From a virus (lineage: Duplodnaviria > Heunggongvirae > Uroviricota > Caudoviricetes): 32,858 bases of DNA. Below the pieces are notes generated by a model. That model saw nothing but the letters and a program-made list of their open reading frames with translations. It made no database searches and was not told the DNA's origin. This document shows positions 1 through 32,858 of the stretch, one piece after another; positions within the stretch are counted from its first letter, which is position 1; every line of letters begins with the position of its first letter. The DNA lies in IMG/VR virus record IMGVR_UViG_2802429238_000001. One strand, written 5' to 3'. The position numbers and the translations under genes were made by a program.

Positions 1-126
1 GATATCCAGCAGGCGAAAGATTATGCGCCAAGCCATTTCCTGCTCTACGTGCGGTATTCCGCCGCCGGATGGCAGGGCGACATGGATTTACCGCCGCAGC
101 CGCTGATACCTTACGCCGACTGGTAA
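1..126 (+). CDS. 3' end of a host chromosomal gene (partial; N-terminus outside window)
   Basis: Frame 1 is open from the window edge to TAA at 124-126 (..PLIPYADW*). No family recognised; identity not established. Confidence 0.4.
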   Translation, partial: DIQQAKDYAPSHFLLYVRYSAAGWQGDMDLPPQPLIPYADW

Positions 127-248: not shown

Positions 249-1046
249 TTAGAACATCACCTTATGACCATATTGCTCAAGAATCCCTTTTACGCGCTCC
301 ATGGTTTCTTTTTTCGGTGGTTTCACACCGTCGAGTTTGTACTCTTCGCCCATCGCCACCCACTTATGTTTGCCTAACTCATGGTAGGGGAGGAGCTCGA
401 TTTTTTCGACGTTACCCATATCGCGAGTAAATTCACCGAGGCGATGAGCTGAATCGTCATCGTCAGACCAGCCAGGTACTACGACATAACGTATCCAGAC
501 TTTCACATTTTTGTTCGCCAGATATTTAGCAAACTCGAGTGTACGATGGTTGGAAACGCCCACCAGATTCTGGTGGATTTCGTCGTTCATCTGTTTGAGA
601 TCAAGCATTACCAGGTCGGTCACTTCCAGCAGTTCATCAATTACTGGATCGTAACGACGAACAAAACCGTTAGTGTCGAGACAGGTATGAATGCCTTCTT
701 TTTTGCAGGCGCGGAACCAGTCGCGAACGAACTCGGCTTGCAGGATTGCTTCACCACCGGATGCGGTAACGCCGCCGCCGGAAGCGTTCATAAAGTGGCG
801 ATAGGTCACCACTTCCTTCATTAAATCTTCAACGGTAACTTCTTTACCGCCATGCGTGTCCCAGGTGTCGCGGTTATGACAATACAGGCAGCGCATCAGG
901 CAGCCCTGGAAAAAGGTGATAAAGCGAATACCTGGACCGTCTACGGTTCCACAGGATTCAAAGGAGTGAATGCGACCAATAACTGACTTGGTAGCTCCCG
1001 CCGCAGCGGTATTTTCTGTTGTATTACAATTAGTTAAATTACTCAT
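249..1046 (-). CDS. pflA: Pyruvate formate-lyase activating enzyme (radical SAM, CxxxCxxC = CLYCHNRD motif region), with a 19-codon N-terminal extension
   Basis: 265-aa ORF; residues 21-265 read as the PflA sequence as I recall it ([22 protein letters not shown]...HKVMF). The codon at the position I recall as Met1 (987-989) is AAG (Lys), so the only in-frame ATG is at 1044-1046. Start assignment uncertain. Confidence 0.85.
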
Positions 1047-1077
1047 ATCGCTTCAATTGGCTCTAGTTAACTCTGGT
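1047..1077. other. Probable attL junction region between pflA start and integrase stop
   Basis: 31-bp spacer between the pflA ATG and the int stop codon. Contains the 8-bp palindrome AGTTAACT (1065-1072), and TAGTTAA occurs twice (1031-1037 and 1064-1070). Core cannot be delimited without attR or attP. Confidence 0.3.
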
Positions 1078-2073
1078 TTATGGACGCATTATGGACATTC
1101 CTGACACCGGGTTAAGAGTCACAGCATCTTGTAAGAAATCCGGTGCAAAGTGTGCGTAGGTCATAGTTTGCTGAATGTTAGAATGACCCAGGATGCGCTG
1201 CAATGTGATTATGTTACCTCCATTCATTATAAAATGTGTGGCAAATGTATGCCTCAAAACATGCACTGCCTGTCCGTCAGGTAAATCGGGTTTTACTTCC
1301 CTGAGAGCGTTGCGCACTTTGTAGTAACTGGCATTAAAAAGCCTGCCTGAATTTTTGGTCTTGATCCGTTTAATCAAGTCCGGCGAAACGGGAATTGTCC
1401 TGCGCTTTCCGTTTTTAGTTTTCATAAACGTAACCATCTGGTTAATGATGTGTTCAGCTTTTAAATTAGACACTTCACTCCAGCGTCCACCAGTAGAAAG
1501 GCAGACCAGAGTCGCATTTAATTCATCACCATCAAGCATGGATAACAGCCGCGTAATCTCTTCACTGGACAAAAAAGCCATTTCCGTAACAGCTTCACGT
1601 AACCGCTTAACCTCACGGAACGGGTTGTGAGAGTGGTATTCACCGGCGTCAATTAATTTGGTGAACATCCCGCTCATTATTGCCAGATGCCGATTTACGC
1701 TGGCTGGTTTTAGACCATCGTTCATCATTACAACGCGATAATCAGTTATCGTTTTCTTTGTTAGCTGGTCAGCTCTGGATACTCCCATTTCTGCAAATTT
1801 GGCGATTATTGTCGTCAAACGCCCCCGTTCAATATCTCCACGCTCATGTGATTTTCCGTGATATATCCACCATCTGCCTAACAACTCTGTAAGAGTTCGG
1901 CGGTCGGCTGGCTTCTCCAACCACTCTTTGTTGTGGTAGTTAACCAGTACATGACGTTCGAATGCTTGAGCTTCACCCTTAGTTTTAAATTTCCGCCTGA
2001 TACGTTTTCCATCTGTACCCTGCGGTCTGACGTCCACTTCATAACGACCATCATCGAGCTTTTTAATAGACAT
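1078..2073 (-). CDS. int: Tyrosine integrase, P2 Int family
   Basis: 331 aa, MSIKKLDDGRYEVDV.. N-terminus and C-terminal catalytic region (HVLRHTFATHF..ITLQRILGH..YAHF) typical of P2-type integrases; GGAGGG RBS 4 nt upstream of ATG; position at the prophage left end. Confidence 0.92.
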   Translation of the reverse strand: MSIKKLDDGRYEVDVRPQGTDGKRIRRKFKTKGEAQAFERHVLVNYHNKEWLEKPADRRTLTELLGRWWIYHGKSHERGDIERGRLTTIIAKFAEMGVSRADQLTKKTITDYRVVMMNDGLKPASVNRHLAIMSGMFTKLIDAGEYHSHNPFREVKRLREAVTEMAFLSSEEITRLLSMLDGDELNATLVCLSTGGRWSEVSNLKAEHIINQMVTFMKTKNGKRRTIPVSPDLIKRIKTKNSGRLFNASYYKVRNALREVKPDLPDGQAVHVLRHTFATHFIMNGGNIITLQRILGHSNIQQTMTYAHFAPDFLQDAVTLNPVSGMSIMRP

Positions 2074-2166: not shown

Positions 2167-2466
2167 TCAGCCAGTCTTTTGGTCTGAGTGGTGCAAGGTT
2201 GTTGAGTCTTGCCCAATGTGTGCGAGAGCCGGGGCTATTTGTCCAGCTTCGGGATCTATTTCATCAAACATGAACCAGTCACGATACTTGCGAAAGCGTG
2301 GATGCTTAAACAGCTTCATACCTGCTTCCATAGGCATTTTTGATTTCCCTGATTCATATCCATGATATGTGTAGTAATTAATTCCAATTAATTCAGCAAG
2401 TTCCTTAGTTTTAAGGCGTTCGGATTCACGGATGAGCTTTAATTTCTCGCTTTGTTCACTTGACAT
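2167..2466 (-). CDS. C: Immunity repressor, P2 C family
   Basis: 99 aa from the ATG at 2466 (track ORF starts at TTG 2484); C-terminus ..QIAPALAHIGQ..SDQKTG resembles P2 C; lies between int and the divergent cox gene. Confidence 0.85.
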   Translation of the reverse strand: MSSEQSEKLKLIRESERLKTKELAELIGINYYTYHGYESGKSKMPMEAGMKLFKHPRFRKYRDWFMFDEIDPEAGQIAPALAHIGQDSTTLHHSDQKTG

Positions 2467-2559
2467 AATTTTGCTAATCTCCAATTATATGGCCGCTTGG
2501 CAATTTGTGATGCACTCAAAAAGGCTCTAGATGGCTCCAGTTGGTGAATTACAAATCTT
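2467..2559. promoter_or_regulatory. Lysogeny/lysis switch region (Pc/Pe promoters and C operator expected here)
   Basis: 93-bp region between divergent C and cox; direct repeats GGCTCTAG (2523-2530) and GGCTCCAG (2533-2540) spaced 10 bp apart. Placement by analogy to P2; exact promoter elements not resolved. Confidence 0.5.
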
Positions 2560-2931
2560 ATGGAGGATAGCAAAGTGACGACAAATGTAGAAATTTCTTG
2601 TCAAACTAGCGATGAGGCAAGTTTCGAAAACGAAGCCAAACGCAAAAGCATTCAGATTTCAGAGCGCCCATCAGATTTGCTGTCGAAAGAGGGGTTTGCT
2701 CTTTACATCGGTAAGACACCACGCGCGGTGGCTGAAATGGCTAAAGCGGGAAAGCTGCCAGCCTTCTATATGACAGACCCATTAAAACCAAGAGGGAAAG
2801 CTGAATTATGGGTAAATCGTCGTGAGTGGGATAAGTATGCGGCACAACTAGTCGAAGAGGCTCCGACCGAGTGGCATGACTGGAAAAATCGCATTAGTTA
2901 CAGCAAATCAAGACATGGCCGTGCGGCTTAA
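2560..2931 (+). CDS. cox: Cox-like excisionase / early repressor
   Basis: 123-aa ORF; central region (FALYIGKTPRAVAEMAKAGKLPAFYMTDP) resembles P2 Cox helix-turn-helix. Alternative start GTG 2575 is preceded by GGAGG (2562-2566) with an 8-nt spacer and may be the real start. Confidence 0.7.
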   Translation: MEDSKVTTNVEISCQTSDEASFENEAKRKSIQISERPSDLLSKEGFALYIGKTPRAVAEMAKAGKLPAFYMTDPLKPRGKAELWVNRREWDKYAAQLVEEAPTEWHDWKNRISYSKSRHGRAA

Positions 2932-3112: not shown

Positions 3113-3609
3113 CAGTGATGACGCTCAATCTCGTTGAAAAACAGCCAGCAACTATGCGCCGGATAATTGGTAAGCATCTGGCCGTCCCTCGCTGGCAGGA
3201 GACATGCGATTATTATAATCAGATGATGGAACGCGAACGGCTAACGGTTTGCTTTCATGCGCAGTTAAAACAGCGTCACGCAACGATGCGTTTTGAAGAA
3301 ATGAACGACGTCGAACGTGAACGACTGGTATGTGCAATTGATGAATTGCGCGGGGCATTCTCAAAACGCCGTCAGGTTGGCGCAAGTGAGTATGCATATA
3401 TTAGTTTTTTAACAGTCAGTCAGCGTCGCACTTTATTTATGCACGCACGACTGACAGAAAAAGAATTTAACCAGCCATACTGGCGAATTAATGAAGAGTC
3501 ATGTTACTGGCGTGATGCTTTATTCCGTGCATTACGTGAATTATTCAGCCTGTTTGAGTATGCACCGACAATTCTGACGTCGGTAAAACCAGAGCAATAT
3601 CTGCATTAA
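3109..3609 (+). CDS. B: Replication protein B (helicase-loader-like), P2 B family
   Basis: 166 aa, same size as P2 B and same position after cox/orf78; sequence matches my recollection of P2 B. Confidence 0.8.
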   Translation: MTVMTLNLVEKQPATMRRIIGKHLAVPRWQETCDYYNQMMERERLTVCFHAQLKQRHATMRFEEMNDVERERLVCAIDELRGAFSKRRQVGASEYAYISFLTVSQRRTLFMHARLTEKEFNQPYWRINEESCYWRDALFRALRELFSLFEYAPTILTSVKPEQYLH

Positions 3610-4656: not shown

Positions 4657-4928
4657 GTATTCGTATTGAAATTGGCGAACGTTATGTCGTTACCAGTGAC
4701 AGCTTTCAGTTTATTCTCCACGAGAAAAAGAGAGCGGAAAGCGGTAAAAACGCCGGTCAGGAATGGCTGGCGGTGGTTGGTTATTACCCGAAATTAAGCC
4801 AGCTCGTTTCCGGCCTGATGCATCACGATATTCTGACCGGAAGCGCAAAGTCTTTTGCTGATTTAAACGCGCAGGTTGAGCAACTCAGCAAGCGTTGTTC
4901 AGAGGCTTTTGGCTCATATGGCCGTTAA
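4653..4928 (+). CDS. Hypothetical early-operon protein
   Basis: 91 codons; ATGA overlap upstream; 3' end overlaps the A start by 11 nt. Confidence 0.55.
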   Translation: MSIRIEIGERYVVTSDSFQFILHEKKRAESGKNAGQEWLAVVGYYPKLSQLVSGLMHHDILTGSAKSFADLNAQVEQLSKRCSEAFGSYGR

Positions 4929-7203
4929 AGCCTCCGGGCGTTTTGTCCCTCCGTCAGCATTTGCCGCAGGCACCGGTGAGACGTTTACCGGTGCTTATGC
5001 ATGGAACGCGCCACGCGAGGCCGTCGGGCGCGAAAGACCCCTTACACGTGACGAGATGCGTCAGGTGCAAGGTGTTTTATCCACGATTAATCGCCTGCCT
5101 TACTTTTTGCGCTCGCTGTTTACTTCACGCTATGACTACATCCGGCGCAATAAAAGCCCGGTGCACGGGTTTTATTTCCTCACATCCACTTTTCAGCGTC
5201 GTTTATGGCCGCGCATTGAGCGCGTGAATCAGCGCCATGAAATGAACACCGACGCGTCGTTGCTGTTTCTGGCAGAGCGCGACCAGTATGCGCGCCTGCC
5301 GGGAATGAATGACAAGGAGCTGAAAAAGTTTGCCGCCCGTATCTCATCGCAGCTTTTCATGATGTATGAGGAACTCAGCGATGCCTGGGTGGATGCGCAT
5401 GGCGAAAAAGAATCGCTGTTTACGGATGAGGCGCAGGATCACCTGTATGGTCATGTTGCTGGCGCTGCACGTGCTTTCAATATTTCCCCTCTCTACTGGA
5501 AAAAATACCGTAAAGGACAGATAACCACGAGGCAGGCATATTCTGCCATTGCCCGTCTGTTTAACGATGAGTGGTGGACTCATCAGCTTAAAGGCCAGCG
5601 TATGCGCTGGCATGAGGCGTTACTGATTGCTGTCGGGGAGGTCAATAAAGACCGTTCTCCTTATGCCAGTAAACATGCCATTCGTGATGTGCGTGCGCGC
5701 CGCCAGGCAAATCTGGAATTTCTTAAATCGTGTGACCTTGAAAACAGGGAAACCGGCGAGCGCATCGACCTTATCAGTAAGGTGATGGGCAGTATTTCTA
5801 ATCCTGAAATTCGCCGGATGGAGCTGATGAACACCATTGCCGGTATTGAGCGTTACGCCGCCGCAGAGGGCGATGTGGGCATGTTTATCACGCTGACCGC
5901 GCCGTCAAAGTATCACCCGACACGTCAGGTCGGAAAAGGCGAAAGTAAAACCGTCCAGCTAAATCACGGCTGGAATGATGAGGCATTTAATCCAAAGGAT
6001 GCGCAGCGTTATCTCTGCCGTATCTGGAGCCTGATGCGCACGGCATTCAAGGATAATGATTTACAGGTCTACGGTTTGCGAGTCGTCGAGCCACACCACG
6101 ACGGAACGCCGCACTGGCATATGATGCTTTTTTGTAATCCACGCCAGCGTAATCAGATTATCGAAATCATGCGTCGCTATGCGCTCAAAGAGGATGGTGA
6201 CGAAAGAGGAGCCGCGCGAAACCGTTTTCAGGCAAAGCACCTTAACCGGGGCGGTGCTGCGGGATATATCGCGAAATACATTTCAAAAAATATCGACGGC
6301 TATGCACTGGATGGTCAGCTCGATAACGATACCGGCAGACCTCTGAAAGATACTGCCGCGGCTGTTACTGCATGGGCGTCAACGTGGCGCATCCCGCAAT
6401 TTAAAACGGTTGGTCTGCCGACAATGGGGGCTTACCGTGAACTACGCAAATTGCCTCGCGGCGTCAGCATTGCTGATGAGTTTGACGAACGCGTCGAGGC
6501 TGCACGCGCTGCCGCAGACAGTGGCGATTTTGCGTTGTATATCAGTGCGCAGGGTGGGGCAAATGTCCCGCGCGATTGTCAGACTGTCAGGGTCGCCCGT
6601 AGCCCGTCGGATGACGTTAACGAGTACGAGGAAGAAGTCGAGAGAGTGGTCGGCATTTACGCGCCGCATCTCGGCGCGCGTCATATTCATATCACCAGAA
6701 CCACGGACTGGCGCATTGTGCCGAAAGTGCCGGTCGTTGAGCCTTTGACTTTAAAAAGCGGCATCGCCGCGCCTCGGAGTCCTGTCAATAACTGTGGAAA
6801 ACTCACCGGTGGTGATACTTCGTTACCGGCTCCCACACCTTCTGAGCACGCCGCAGCAGTGCTTAATCTGGTTGATGACGGTGTTATCGAATGGAGTGAC
6901 CCGGAGGTCGTGAGGGCGCTCAGAGGTGCATTAAAACACGGTCGGAGAACGCCAAGTCGTCAGCAAAGAAACGGAAGCCCGTTAAAACCACATGAAATTG
7001 CACCATCGGCCAGACTGACCCGGTCGGAAAGAATGCAAATTACCCGTATCCGCGTTGACCTTGCTCAGAAGGGTATCAGGCCGCAGCGATGGGAGCTTGA
7101 GGCGCTGGCGCGTGGCGCGACCGTAAATTATGACGGGAAAAAATTCACGTATCCGGTCGCTGATGAGTGGCCGGGATTCTTAACAGTAATGGAGTGGACA
7201 TAA
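4918..7203 (+). CDS. A: Rolling-circle replication initiator (HUH endonuclease), P2 A family
   Basis: 761 aa from ATG 4918 (MAVKASGRF..; the track ORF begins upstream at 4876). Size and sequence match the P2 A protein; contains a HWHMM motif consistent with a HUH active site. Confidence 0.9.
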   Translation: MAVKASGRFVPPSAFAAGTGETFTGAYAWNAPREAVGRERPLTRDEMRQVQGVLSTINRLPYFLRSLFTSRYDYIRRNKSPVHGFYFLTSTFQRRLWPRIERVNQRHEMNTDASLLFLAERDQYARLPGMNDKELKKFAARISSQLFMMYEELSDAWVDAHGEKESLFTDEAQDHLYGHVAGAARAFNISPLYWKKYRKGQITTRQAYSAIARLFNDEWWTHQLKGQRMRWHEALLIAVGEVNKDRSPYASKHAIRDVRARRQANLEFLKSCDLENRETGERIDLISKVMGSISNPEIRRMELMNTIAGIERYAAAEGDVGMFITLTAPSKYHPTRQVGKGESKTVQLNHGWNDEAFNPKDAQRYLCRIWSLMRTAFKDNDLQVYGLRVVEPHHDGTPHWHMMLFCNPRQRNQIIEIMRRYALKEDGDERGAARNRFQAKHLNRGGAAGYIAKYISKNIDGYALDGQLDNDTGRPLKDTAAAVTAWASTWRIPQFKTVGLPTMGAYRELRKLPRGVSIADEFDERVEAARAAADSGDFALYISAQGGANVPRDCQTVRVARSPSDDVNEYEEEVERVVGIYAPHLGARHIHITRTTDWRIVPKVPVVEPLTLKSGIAAPRSPVNNCGKLTGGDTSLPAPTPSEHAAAVLNLVDDGVIEWSDPEVVRALRGALKHGRRTPSRQQRNGSPLKPHEIAPSARLTRSERMQITRIRVDLAQKGIRPQRWELEALARGATVNYDGKKFTYPVADEWPGFLTVMEWT

Positions 7204-7480: not shown

Positions 7481-8676
<1,196 letters not shown>

Positions 8677-8854
8677 TTAGTGCGCGTGGTCTGGTATTTA
8701 GAATTAATCATGAAATTATGCATCAGCTCGGCCTTGCTATTATGTATGAACCAGATACGGGGCTGTCTGGTGGGGCAATGGTTGCTGTGGATGGGATGTG
8801 GAACTATTCAGATGAACAGATGGAGCGTGCACAGCAAAACGGGTGGCCTGGATA

Positions 8855-9061
8855 ATGCACAAAATACCAAGCGAGATACCGCACCATAAAACTAAAAATA
8901 TCAAGCTGATGGCTATTGTTCAGCGTTTACAGCGGATTATGGTCAACGAAAATCTGACGCCCGATGAGCTAGTCGGGTGTGCCGAAATAGTCCGGGATAA
9001 TTACGGGCGGTTTAACCATATCGGTCAATCAAGAGTTACGCCACCACCACGCAGACGATAG
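8855..9061 (+). CDS. Small hypothetical protein (68 aa), basic C-terminus
   Basis: ATG 8855 overlaps the stop of the interrupted upstream gene (TAATG); the track ORF is extended to GTG 8843. No family recognised. Confidence 0.45.
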   Translation: MHKIPSEIPHHKTKNIKLMAIVQRLQRIMVNENLTPDELVGCAEIVRDNYGRFNHIGQSRVTPPPRRR

Positions 9062-9249: not shown

Positions 9250-9290
9250 TAAGGTCGATTTTTTATGTGGATGATGCAAAAAGGATAGCT

Positions 9291-10022
9291 ATGGATATTG
9301 TAATCGCTTTTCTATCACTCGCTTTTTTCGTTGCTTTTTTCATCGGGTTAATCAAGCCATCACTGGTGCGGATGCCAAACCGTAAACGTGCAAGTGCGGT
9401 TTATCTCGGAGGTGGTTTTGCATTGAGCATAATTGGTTCAATACTCTACCCAACAGAAAAAAGCCAGCCAGTTGCTAAAACTGAAACAGCAACCGTAGCA
9501 GAACACCAGGCTCAAAAAACATTCGAATATACTGAAAAAACACTCAAGGAATATCGGAACGAGCCAAAGAAGACTCGACACGATATTGTGAATAGTTACA
9601 TTAACTTTAAGAAAGTGCCAGTCACCGCATCAGATGCATTTTATGCCTGCATGAGTGAGTATACATTTACCAAAGATGATGAGTTGAAACTCGGTGATGT
9701 TCTTGGATGGTGCTTTAATGATTATGAAAAAGATCCGAAATCACTAAACAATAAAATCAACCTTGATACATTTCAGAGTAATTTTAGTGGTTGGGATGGT
9801 TCTTATCGACCATTGGAAAAGTTAATTAAAGAGAATATGAACGATGATTCATCTTATAAACATGTGTCAACAGTGTATCATTTAATCCTGAATAAAGACC
9901 CTCATGCTATAGTGAAAACCACATTTCGCGGTACTAATGCCTATGGTGGTGTCGTGAAGCAAACAATTGCAGCGCGTGTTAATGTGAAAACGGGTGAAAT
10001 AGTTTCGATACTAAATAATTGA
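9291..10022 (+). CDS. Predicted membrane protein (two N-terminal TM helices plus ~190-aa soluble domain), cargo gene 1
   Basis: 243 aa from ATG 9291 with AGGA RBS 5 nt upstream (track ORF starts at GTG 9267). Hydrophobic segments IVIAFLSLAFFVAFFIGLI and AVYLGGGFALSIIGSILY; AT-rich; no family recognised. Confidence 0.7.
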   Translation: MDIVIAFLSLAFFVAFFIGLIKPSLVRMPNRKRASAVYLGGGFALSIIGSILYPTEKSQPVAKTETATVAEHQAQKTFEYTEKTLKEYRNEPKKTRHDIVNSYINFKKVPVTASDAFYACMSEYTFTKDDELKLGDVLGWCFNDYEKDPKSLNNKINLDTFQSNFSGWDGSYRPLEKLIKENMNDDSSYKHVSTVYHLILNKDPHAIVKTTFRGTNAYGGVVKQTIAARVNVKTGEIVSILNN

Positions 10023-10218: not shown

Positions 10219-10917
10219 ATGAAGTATTGTGGGATAGCTTTAATAATATGTCTTTGCTTGTTTATGTTCGCATTTGGTTTTGTGTTGGGCGGAGTTCAAT
10301 GGGCATGGAGCGAGAGTGAAAATAATAGCAAGGTCGCATTTTGGACAATGCTAGGAGGGTGGGTGTCAGGATTGGCTACTCTCGCGGCTGTGGGGGTTTC
10401 ATTATTTACAAGTTATTATGCGATGATGTTAGGCAAAGAGAAAGTTGACGTTGTTTTTGCGCCTATATATACGACCTCTACGGCAAAAAAAGCAGATAAG
10501 CTTTCATCGCAAGATTTGGCTAATATCAAAGTGACAAATTTACACGGTGTGAAGTGTACTATTGTTAATGTTTATATGAAGTTTAGTGATGTTAAGGAAC
10601 CATTAAAGATTAATAACCTTAAACAGGGCGGTAAGCCCATTCCTTATACGCTATGTAATATAAGCGATATGTGGGAGTTTGCATTTGGGATGGAGTCAAA
10701 CCCTAGATTGAGATTTCTATTGTCAGGGTTGAAATATGAAGGTCGACCATCCTTTAAAAAAGGGTATTTCATCATTGAGACAGCAATGAAACAATACAAG
10801 TTAAAGATGCGGAAAGACTTTCTCTCAATATTACAGAGTGAGTATCAAAGCATAGAGGAAGAATCTAAACGTAACTCAGTTAAATCAGGGTGGTCACGGT
10901 ATAAAAAACAGAATTAA
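10219..10917 (+). CDS. Predicted membrane protein (two N-terminal TM helices plus ~160-aa soluble domain), cargo gene 2
   Basis: 232 aa; AGGA RBS 8 nt upstream of ATG; hydrophobic segments GIALIICLCLFMFAFGFVLGGV and WTMLGGWVSGLATLAAVGVSLF; very AT-rich; no family recognised. Confidence 0.7.
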   Translation: MKYCGIALIICLCLFMFAFGFVLGGVQWAWSESENNSKVAFWTMLGGWVSGLATLAAVGVSLFTSYYAMMLGKEKVDVVFAPIYTTSTAKKADKLSSQDLANIKVTNLHGVKCTIVNVYMKFSDVKEPLKINNLKQGGKPIPYTLCNISDMWEFAFGMESNPRLRFLLSGLKYEGRPSFKKGYFIIETAMKQYKLKMRKDFLSILQSEYQSIEEESKRNSVKSGWSRYKKQN

Positions 10918-32558: not shown

Positions 32559-32639
32559 TGTTTTTATTTTATCTATTTGTTTTATAAGGATAAATTAACT
32601 AAAATGGCACCATCAACAAAACCGGAAGAGGTGCTCGCG
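32559..32639 (+). promoter_or_regulatory. AT-rich region upstream of ogr (probable ogr promoter)
   Basis: 81-bp AT-rich spacer (TGTTTTTATTTTATCTATTTGTTTTATAAGGATAAAT..) between the D stop and the ogr ATG. Confidence 0.4.
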
Positions 32640-32858
32640 ATGTTTCATTGTCCTTTATGCCAGCATGCCGCACATGCGCGTACAAGCCGCTATATCACTG
32701 ACACGACAAAAGAGCGTTATCACCAGTGTCAGAACGTGAATTGCAGCGCCACGTTCATCACTTATGAGTCGGTACAGCGATACATCGTGAAGCCGGGAGA
32801 AGTCCACGCCGTAAGGCCGCACCCGTTGCCGTCAGGGCAACAAATTATGTGGATGTAA
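32640..32858 (+). CDS. ogr: Late transcription activator Ogr (zinc-finger)
   Basis: 72 aa from ATG 32640 (MFHCPLCQHAAHARTSRYITD..CQNVNCSATF..), CxxC..CxxC zinc finger; track ORF starts upstream at 32577; stop is the last codon of the window. Confidence 0.9.
   Translation: MFHCPLCQHAAHARTSRYITDTTKERYHQCQNVNCSATFITYESVQRYIVKPGEVHAVRPHPLPSGQQIMWM

Follow-up and report, generated by a model that had tools for sequence, protein, structure and literature searches.

The attachment core of a Peduovirus prophage lies within the 5′ end of pflA and joins the gene to a phage-derived ATG and 19-codon N-terminal extension

The window analysed here, that is the whole stretch of 32,858 nucleotides of the IMG/VR virus record IMGVR_UViG_2802429238_000001, carries a P2-like prophage whose integrase gene (int) directly adjoins pflA, the host gene for the activating enzyme of pyruvate formate-lyase (PFL). 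Both genes are on the minus strand: int at 1078-2073, ending with a stop codon at 1078-1080 and encoding a P2-type tyrosine integrase (Int) of 331 amino acids (Pfam Int_N, 3e-22; Phage_integrase, 2e-18), and pflA at 249-1046, an open reading frame (ORF) of 265 amino acids that was assigned from the ORF list, RefSeq and Protein Data Bank (PDB) entry 3C8F and that consists of 19 phage-encoded residues, a lysine (Lys20) where Met1 had been, and residues 2-246 of PflA. The phage and host parts of pflA meet in a 13-bp attachment (att) core (ACCAATAACTGAC, 975-987; G-TCA-GTT-ATT-GGT on the coding strand), which was defined by aligning the window with K-12 and with a lysogen and which corresponds to the third base of the pflA start codon and codons 2-5. 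The codon at the native Met1 position (987-989, minus strand) reads AAG, with its G from the core and its AA from the phage. Upstream of it are found the 19-codon phage-derived N-terminal extension (990-1046, minus strand), recognised by its match to the free-phage attP and opened by an ATG at 1044-1046, and, within this extension, a Shine-Dalgarno-like GGGAG of phage DNA (995-999, minus strand) located 5 nt ahead of the AAG. The new ATG is separated from the int stop by a 31-bp spacer that belongs to the phage P′ arm (1047-1077, minus strand, from sequence reading), and a pattern scan of the plus strand located two P′ arm-type Int-binding direct repeats, TATGGACG (1079-1086) and TATGGACA (1090-1097), with a spacing of 11 bp (1079-1097 altogether). 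Direct reading of the letters confirmed what the initial annotation of this DNA had given for the int stop, the pflA ATG and the gap between them, as well as the AAG at codon 20 (ctt on the plus strand), the 19-residue extension and the position of the GGGAG.

Three codons ahead of the ATG at 1044-1046, an in-frame TGA closes the frame of the extended pflA, and no other in-frame ATG, GTG or TTG occurs between 1046 and 987. This ATG is the only productive canonical start, since the next in-frame ATG downstream lies past the first cluster cysteine. PflA residues 21-265 are 100% identical to the crystallised E. coli PFL-activating enzyme (PDB 3C8F/3CB8, with a chain beginning at Ser2), and the radical SAM CX3CX2C motif is present with C49, C53 and C56 invariant (Pfam Radical_SAM and Fer4_12 are recorded for the homologues). 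The N-terminus expected for PflA in the initial annotation (M-SVIGRIH) was the right one, as K-12 pflA starts with ATG-TCA-GTT-ATT-GGT. RefSeq gives a 798-nt pflA (WP_000067977.1) next to a ‘phage integrase’ in lysogens. Note that one open stretch of 19 codons would occur by chance in about 40% of cases and is not significant alone; the significance of the open frame arises because it is conserved across lineages.

Comparison of the attachment sites located the junction precisely. The window agrees with K-12 letter for letter up to and including ACCAATAACTGAC and is unrelated to it from 988 onward; in alignments with prophage-free relatives, the match ends at 987-990 for K-12 and for each prophage-free E. 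coli sampled, so that the extension is not native. The core is the sole stretch identical in attL, attR, attB and attP, and its flanks swap partners as expected. Indeed, the attR of lysogen NZ_CP025847 reads ...aaaaaatgtc-ACCAATAACTGAC-attgcggtgtttctcc..., i.e., the core is followed by attgcggtg..., the native pflA leader and pflB, and the far end of this prophage displays, in order, ogrK, a terminator, TGTGGTCA-N3-TGTGGACG, the core, the native pflA leader and pflB. The attP of the free phage P24A7b is the corresponding hybrid (...aaaaaatgtc-ACCAATAACTGAC-ttggtagccccc...cat...int), in which the ogr side is joined via the core to the P′ arm, and the extension region of the window (988-1046) differs from this attP by two substitutions only. 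All DNA from 988 upward belongs to the phage, including the AA of the AAG, the extension with its ATG, the spacer of 31 bp, the two arm sites and int. The arm repeats TATGGACG and TATGGACA, together with the partner pair TGTGGTCA/TGTGGACG found on the ogr side of attR and attP, fit the P2-type arm-site consensus tgTGGaCa (Nilsson et al. 2011, PMC3448106), with at least two of them on each side of the core in attP. We are therefore almost certain that the window at 975-1097 is the int-proximal junction (attL) of a Peduovirus prophage, as regards the junction itself, the core and the phage origin of the adjoining DNA.

The initial annotation had proposed that attB overlaps the 5′ end of pflA, that the prophage donates a new start and N-terminus, and that pflA is cut off from what formerly lay upstream; all of this agrees with a core covering the start codon and codons 2-5 and with the finding that, in the lysogen, pflB and the native leader of pflA are located past the other prophage end. 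However, it placed the junction in the 31-bp gap between int and pflA, whereas phage and host DNA actually meet within the ORF, at the 13-bp core that follows the new ATG by 57 nt. Similarly, the GGGAG motif was taken for the original ribosome-binding site (RBS), but this motif is phage DNA, and the native GGAGA site remains at attR, where it is left with the native ATG at the head of an 8-codon stub ORF (MSVIGDIF and a stop codon). In NZ_CP025847, this attR stub (L005, 1462-1500, outside the window) and its native promoter point into the prophage, antisense to ogr, with only the ogr terminator hairpin, in reverse orientation, in between. An inverted repeat ACCAA-N8-TTGGT around the core was also considered as the reason for AA instead of AT at the old start codon, and was dropped, the symmetry being absent from the Scandinavium and Rahnella junctions.

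The arrangement of the window recurs in related prophages. Integrases with 76-99% identity to that of the window are encoded in E. albertii, three Scandinavium species, Pseudescherichia vulneris and Rahnella ecdela, each of them just upstream of pflA. At every one of these junctions, the extension opens with an in-frame ATG, counts exactly 19 codons and is free of stops and indels. Across the ten junctions compared (the window, L007-L011, L013, L014, L016 and L019), which come from at least five lineages, the ATG is invariant and the length fixed at 19 codons, while the extension peptides diverge to about 50% identity (e.g., MSNLNTCNLTENTDAPGAV and MSNLTDCISTESTTESGGH). Four residues of the extension (Asn3, Leu4, Cys7 and Glu11) never vary among the ten junctions, although their codons show synonymous exchanges (AAT/AAC and TGT/TGC). 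This invariance may reflect selection on the peptide, including a conserved cysteine ahead of a radical SAM enzyme; alternatively, these residues could result from a constraint on the translation-initiation region or merely from the small sample. The old Met1 codon is AAG in 8 of the 10 junctions, ATG in Rahnella and GTG in L016. At the position of the GGGAG, most related junctions have a G-rich or purine-rich motif, and the other E. coli lysogens and free phages that were read have GGGGG (synonymous GGA/GGG).

The Rahnella ecdela junction (L011, ~3525-3600) reads GGGGGACAT-ATG-TCC-GTT-CAA-GGT and has a true ATG at the native Met1 position in addition to the upstream ATG; therefore, two start sites are possible in this locus. 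Its core must differ from that of E. coli, as must the Scandinavium core, since codons 2-4 of pflA are not the same in these hosts. Minor initiation near the old start may take place in the Rahnella junction and is unlikely with the AAG of E. coli. PflA is a 246-amino acid protein in other Enterobacterales. In Providencia (L022-L024, 2862-3060), it is called at 262 amino acids with an unrelated Thr-rich N-terminal extension (MSAEIITTTDITKTEAPATLG...), which we rejected as phage-related since the pflB-pflA gap is a normal 139 bp and contains no int remnant; PflA N-terminal extensions may thus also be native, or the Providencia start may be over-called.

A protein search also identified the 265-amino acid PflA in loci that have no prophage, namely in Salmonella enterica (L014 and L015, assemblies GCA_010400525.1 and GCA_011237615.1) and in the metagenome loci L016 and L019. 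The Salmonella gene order is pflB, a 319-amino acid SopD-family gene, 570 bp and pflA, whose product begins with MSNLNDCIKKENTAAAAEKKPIIG..., and that of L016 (like L019, a Logan metagenome contig) is focA, pflB, 430 bp and pflA. Directly upstream of the ATG in all three loci, there is a decayed int 3′ end with in-frame stops and frameshifts (junctions at ~2735-3060 in L014/L015, 2770-3060 in L016 and 1940-2180 in L019). These remnants match Int residues 254-331, 269-331 and 281-306 by tblastn (E-values 5e-7, 1e-16 and 0.007, in a small database), and by blastn the int remnant shows 70% identity over 255 nt to window positions 1252-1000 (E-value 3e-23). Arm-site-like repeats are still present upstream, and Salmonella is without the K-12-type pflA leader, its similarity to K-12 ending at the pflB terminator. 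As judged from these sequences, the prophage-free loci are attL junctions left after deletion of the remaining prophage. That the ATG and 19 codons were conserved next to a decaying int speaks for the extended PflA as a working protein, a case that we make because three lines combine (related prophages, prophage-free loci and structure/RNA). The L016 junction is very similar to that of the Rahnella-type phage. We take the Salmonella SopD-family gene to be sopD2, judging by its length and position, and the layout of the locus suggests a Salmonella effector gene within the remains of a prophage at the pflA att site.

The junction is also frequent, being found in 405 of 5426 complete E. coli genomes (7.5%, ~1 in 13), O157:H7 strains included. 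The exact 265-amino acid PflA was retrieved on at least 1000 contigs, and the Klebsiella pneumoniae version on 336 contigs. A scan of IMG/VR with Int returned 80 loci, all 99% identical and nearly all cut 3 nt past the int stop, and therefore added no junction diversity.

As for the extension itself, in an AlphaFold2 model (mean predicted local distance difference test, pLDDT, of 77.9), residues 1-18 have pLDDT below 50 and no secondary structure, the first strand starting from residue 23, so that the extension looks like a floppy, disordered tag. Upstream of int on the same strand lies a C-type immunity repressor gene (2167-2484, minus strand; Pfam HTH_19, helix-turn-helix, HTH), which phage and lysogen records call C protein or HTH protein. 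A consensus scan found a face-to-face promoter-like pair at 2460-2511 on both strands, which was assigned by the P2-type switch position (PMC3448106): a candidate Pc (ATCACA-16-TATAAT, 2511..2484, minus strand), which would read C, int and then pflA, and a candidate Pe (TTGACA-17-AATTAT, 2460..2488, plus strand), which would read cox. No minus-strand terminator-like site was found between C and pflA in a scan of the window, and the 31-bp spacer contains no terminator; read-through from C and int would thus be the simplest source of the pflA transcript, because no terminator intervenes. In addition, Pc is gone from all three decayed loci, which keep at least ~210-250 bp upstream of the ATG, and the upstream neighbour of pflA in Salmonella is divergent, which suggests an additional promoter inside the 3′ end of int. 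An attenuator or terminator in the int-pflA leader was rejected, the RNA fold of 960-1110 being no more stable than its shuffles (z = +0.42), and a promoter-like TTAACC-16-CATAAT at 1115..1088, overlapping the arm sites, is specific to E. coli.

We therefore propose the following explanation. A Peduovirus integrated by Int-mediated site-specific recombination at an attB covering the last base of the start codon and codons 2-5. With the crossover within the gene, pflA loses its promoter, its RBS and the first two bases of its ATG, all kept at attR before the MSVIGDIF stub. The P′ arm provides a substitute 5′ end: its ATG lies 57 nt further upstream and opens a run of 19 codons in frame, and its AA forms with the G of the core a lysine codon for Met1. 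The lysogen would then make a 265-amino acid PflA with a disordered N-terminal tail, and pflA would have to be transcribed from phage DNA, most likely by C-int read-through, from a putative promoter within the final ~210-250 bp of int, or by both. The use of the ATG, the activity of the extended PflA and its promoter are what we infer from the sequences; as a whole, from the junction and its phage origin to ATG use, extended PflA and phage-driven transcription, we consider this explanation probable. The mechanism is an ordinary one, i.e., site-specific integration at a catalogued P2-family attB overlapping the 5′ end of a gene. Less ordinary is that the phage gives a non-homologous replacement 5′ end, and that this module is fixed in prophage-free genomes, including that of Salmonella beside an effector gene.

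The integration site is already known, as that of the phiD145/phiD160 class, which we matched via a converted coordinate and not via the phiD145 sequence. Table 1 of PMC3448106 gives phiD145 and phiD160 at MG1655 coordinate 950293 and lists phiECA29 of Pectobacterium under the site identity of phiD145. The ileY coordinate of this table for phage 186 (2783812) is 1978 lower than ileY in NC_000913.3, and the table therefore uses an older MG1655 numbering. We take the offset between the two MG1655 versions at 0.95 Mb to be ~777 nt; with this assumed offset, 950293 becomes ~951070, which falls within the core at 951066-951078 of NC_000913.3, 8-11 nt into pflA. The site class is reportedly owed to the work of Karlsson et al. 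2006 and Mandali et al. 2010. For the Pectobacterium prophage, a 2026 review states that ECA29 is integrated into pflA. No description of the PflA extension or of the Salmonella remnant was found in the searchable literature, a search that lay outside the primary phiD145, ECA29 and sopD2 papers.

Several observations weigh against a working, phage-started PflA. The Shine-Dalgarno sequence before the new ATG is weak (GAAG at -8 to -5), no promoter-like site exceeds shuffle expectation in the window, Salmonella, L016 or Scandinavium, and none is positionally conserved among E. coli, Scandinavium and Salmonella. At the rate at which the int remnants have decayed, 19 intact codons in three decayed junctions are only marginally unlikely (rough estimate ~0.05), the identity with the phiD145 site hinges on the coordinate conversion and its assumed version offset, and the review calls the pflA of the equivalent Pectobacterium prophage ‘disrupted’. 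Integration could indeed simply inactivate pflA, leaving a fortuitous open frame of 19 codons and lysogens without PFL-activating enzyme, as the review sums up for Pectobacterium ECA29; the weak RBS and the lack of an identified promoter would fit such an outcome, and a single open 57-nt frame is not improbable by chance. Nevertheless, gene disruption appears unlikely to us, since ten junctions have kept the invariant ATG and 19 codons without stop or indel despite ~50% peptide divergence, and since the module was kept in prophage-free Salmonella and two further loci while int decayed. Moreover, the native leader is gone in Salmonella, yet PFL-dependent formate production is well established there, and in E. 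coli the junction reaches 7.5% of complete genomes with the body of pflA 100% intact.

Translation could also begin near the native start, at the AAG or at the ATT of codon 23, through the G-rich motif of the phage and without use of the upstream ATG. Prophage-bearing junctions do have a GGGAG, GGGGC, AGGAG, AGAGG or GGGGGA 3-7 nt before the Met1 position, and the Rahnella phage has a true ATG there (GTG in the related decayed L016). However, the position is AAG in 8 of the 10 junctions, a codon at which E. coli is not known to initiate, whereas the upstream ATG never varies among the ten; the motif itself differs in sequence between junctions, and Salmonella (GCCGCTGAGAAG) and L019 have a poor version of it or none, which makes a near-native start quite improbable. 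The opposite direction of transfer was also considered, in which the leader is the ancestral bacterial 5′ end of pflA, captured by the phage through imprecise excision. The presence of the extension in prophage-free Salmonella, L016 and L019 and the conservation of peptide residues with synonymous changes would agree with it, and an ancient capture may have preceded the events that gave the decayed junctions. Yet in all three loci the extension is preceded by decayed integrase C-terminal sequence and arm-site-like repeats, that is by phage DNA, and other Enterobacterales have the shorter PflA, so that we judge this opposite direction very improbable. Finally, the initial annotation had offered, from comparison of a single codon only, a start-codon substitution, in which the AAG arose from the native ATG by a T-to-A change, with the ORF running by chance to an ATG in native upstream sequence. 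This can practically be discarded, because divergence from the K-12 leader is complete from 988 on, the same region (988-1046) is nearly identical to the free-phage attP, and the loss of similarity at 987-990 is common to all sampled prophage-free E. coli.

Integration with replacement of the pflA 5′ end thus remains the explanation that we favour, and it has consequences at several levels. For annotation, the 265-amino acid pflA of the lysogens is a phage-host chimera and not a miscalled start, and the prophage boundary belongs inside pflA at the 13-bp core instead of at the int stop. As to physiology, a PFL activator that would be expressed behind phage-supplied signals is carried by ~1 in 13 complete E. 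coli genomes, by Klebsiella and by others, and the activity of PFL, the main anaerobic pyruvate enzyme, could depend on the state of the prophage. The displacement of the native leader also creates a ratchet, as an ordinary prophage deletion must then retain the phage-derived 5′ end, and this appears to be realised in Salmonella, beside a type III effector gene. A further-reaching view, which we hold only tentatively and which may well prove wrong, is that the P′ arm is a selected replacement 5′ end for pflA (transcription and translation signals as well as leader) that was repeatedly domesticated, the start of Salmonella pflA being a decayed attL. If true, the SopD-family effector would have come with, or into, a P2-like prophage at the pflA site, and PFL activation in lysogens would be wired to phage-derived signals, possibly to the lysogenic Pc transcript.

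The remainder of the window completes the picture of the prophage. Its first 125 positions (1-125, plus strand) are the 3′ end of ycaK, as found by comparison with K-12. Beyond int and C, the prophage carries cox (2560-2931, plus strand; Pfam Phage_Cox, 5e-30), the replication gene A (4876-7203, from Pfam) and, as its last gene, ogr (32577-32858, plus strand), whose stop is the final base of the window; attR therefore lies just outside. The gene order fits that of P2 (int-C / cox-B-A ... Q P O N M L ... tail ... D-ogr), with C, cox and A assigned by Pfam, D and ogr at the end of the window, and the structural genes by ORF layout. The int gene is 98-99% identical in nucleotides to those of Peduovirus P24A7b, pro483, pro147 and others, and integrase, C, cox, arm repeats, shared core and gene order together identify the prophage as P2-like (Peduovirus). 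Just past gene A, the variable cargo region contains an ORF for an IS5-family transposase (7549-8529; DDE_Tnp_1, 1.6e-35, and DUF772), and cargo ORFs are found between gene A and the portal gene at 8511-8855, 9267-10022 and 10219-10917. The 251- and 232-amino acid cargo ORFs have no Pfam or PADLOC match; the 114-amino acid ORF adjoining the insertion sequence has a weak partial SIR2 match (PADLOC E-value 3.4e-5) and may represent part of a defence gene that this element has interrupted. The prophage of the comparison lysogen is ~2.5 kb shorter than that of the window. Over 850-1300, the window shows two synonymous differences to the best-matching E. coli lysogens, at 936-938 (GGT vs GGC, in pflA) and 996-998 (GGA vs GGG, in the extension), and none of the complete genomes in the collection is 100% identical over this interval.

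Compared with known systems, the prophage shares with the phiD145/phiD160 class a P2-type integrase, tgTGGaCa-type arm repeats and, on the basis of the coordinate, a site inside the pflA core; for this class, the text of PMC3448106 has the coordinate only, without any consequence for PflA. ECA29 of Pectobacterium atrosepticum SCRI1043 has the same site identity as phiD145 and is integrated in pflA, but it is described as disrupting the gene, whereas the window data point to a replaced 5′ end and an open gene (ECA29 being known to us by description only). The free Peduovirus genomes P24A7b, pro483, pro147, 11W, D8 and vB_YpM_46 show 98-99% nucleotide identity over int and attP, and in them the same core and extension sequence form a 27-codon ORF that spans attP; but they are not integrated, and the window prophage carries in addition the IS5-family transposase gene. 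Other phages also alter or preserve the gene into which they insert. As an example, integration of HK022 swaps the torS promoter for a phage promoter (cited in PMC13492144), which resembles our case in that a host gene comes under phage-derived expression signals; for torS, however, the promoter only is exchanged, whereas here the start codon and N-terminus are replaced too, with a promoter swap that would accompany them. Phages 186 (tRNA-Ile), Fels-2 and SopE-phi (both ssrA) integrate at gene 3′ ends or in tRNA genes and rebuild them, their attP supplying a second copy of the end that integration cuts off, and the gene is thereby preserved. The principle resembles that at pflA; but unlike the gene ends restored by these phages, it is here the 5′ end that is interrupted, and the replacement is no copy, since apart from the 13 shared bp, the phage brings a different leader and a different N-terminus.

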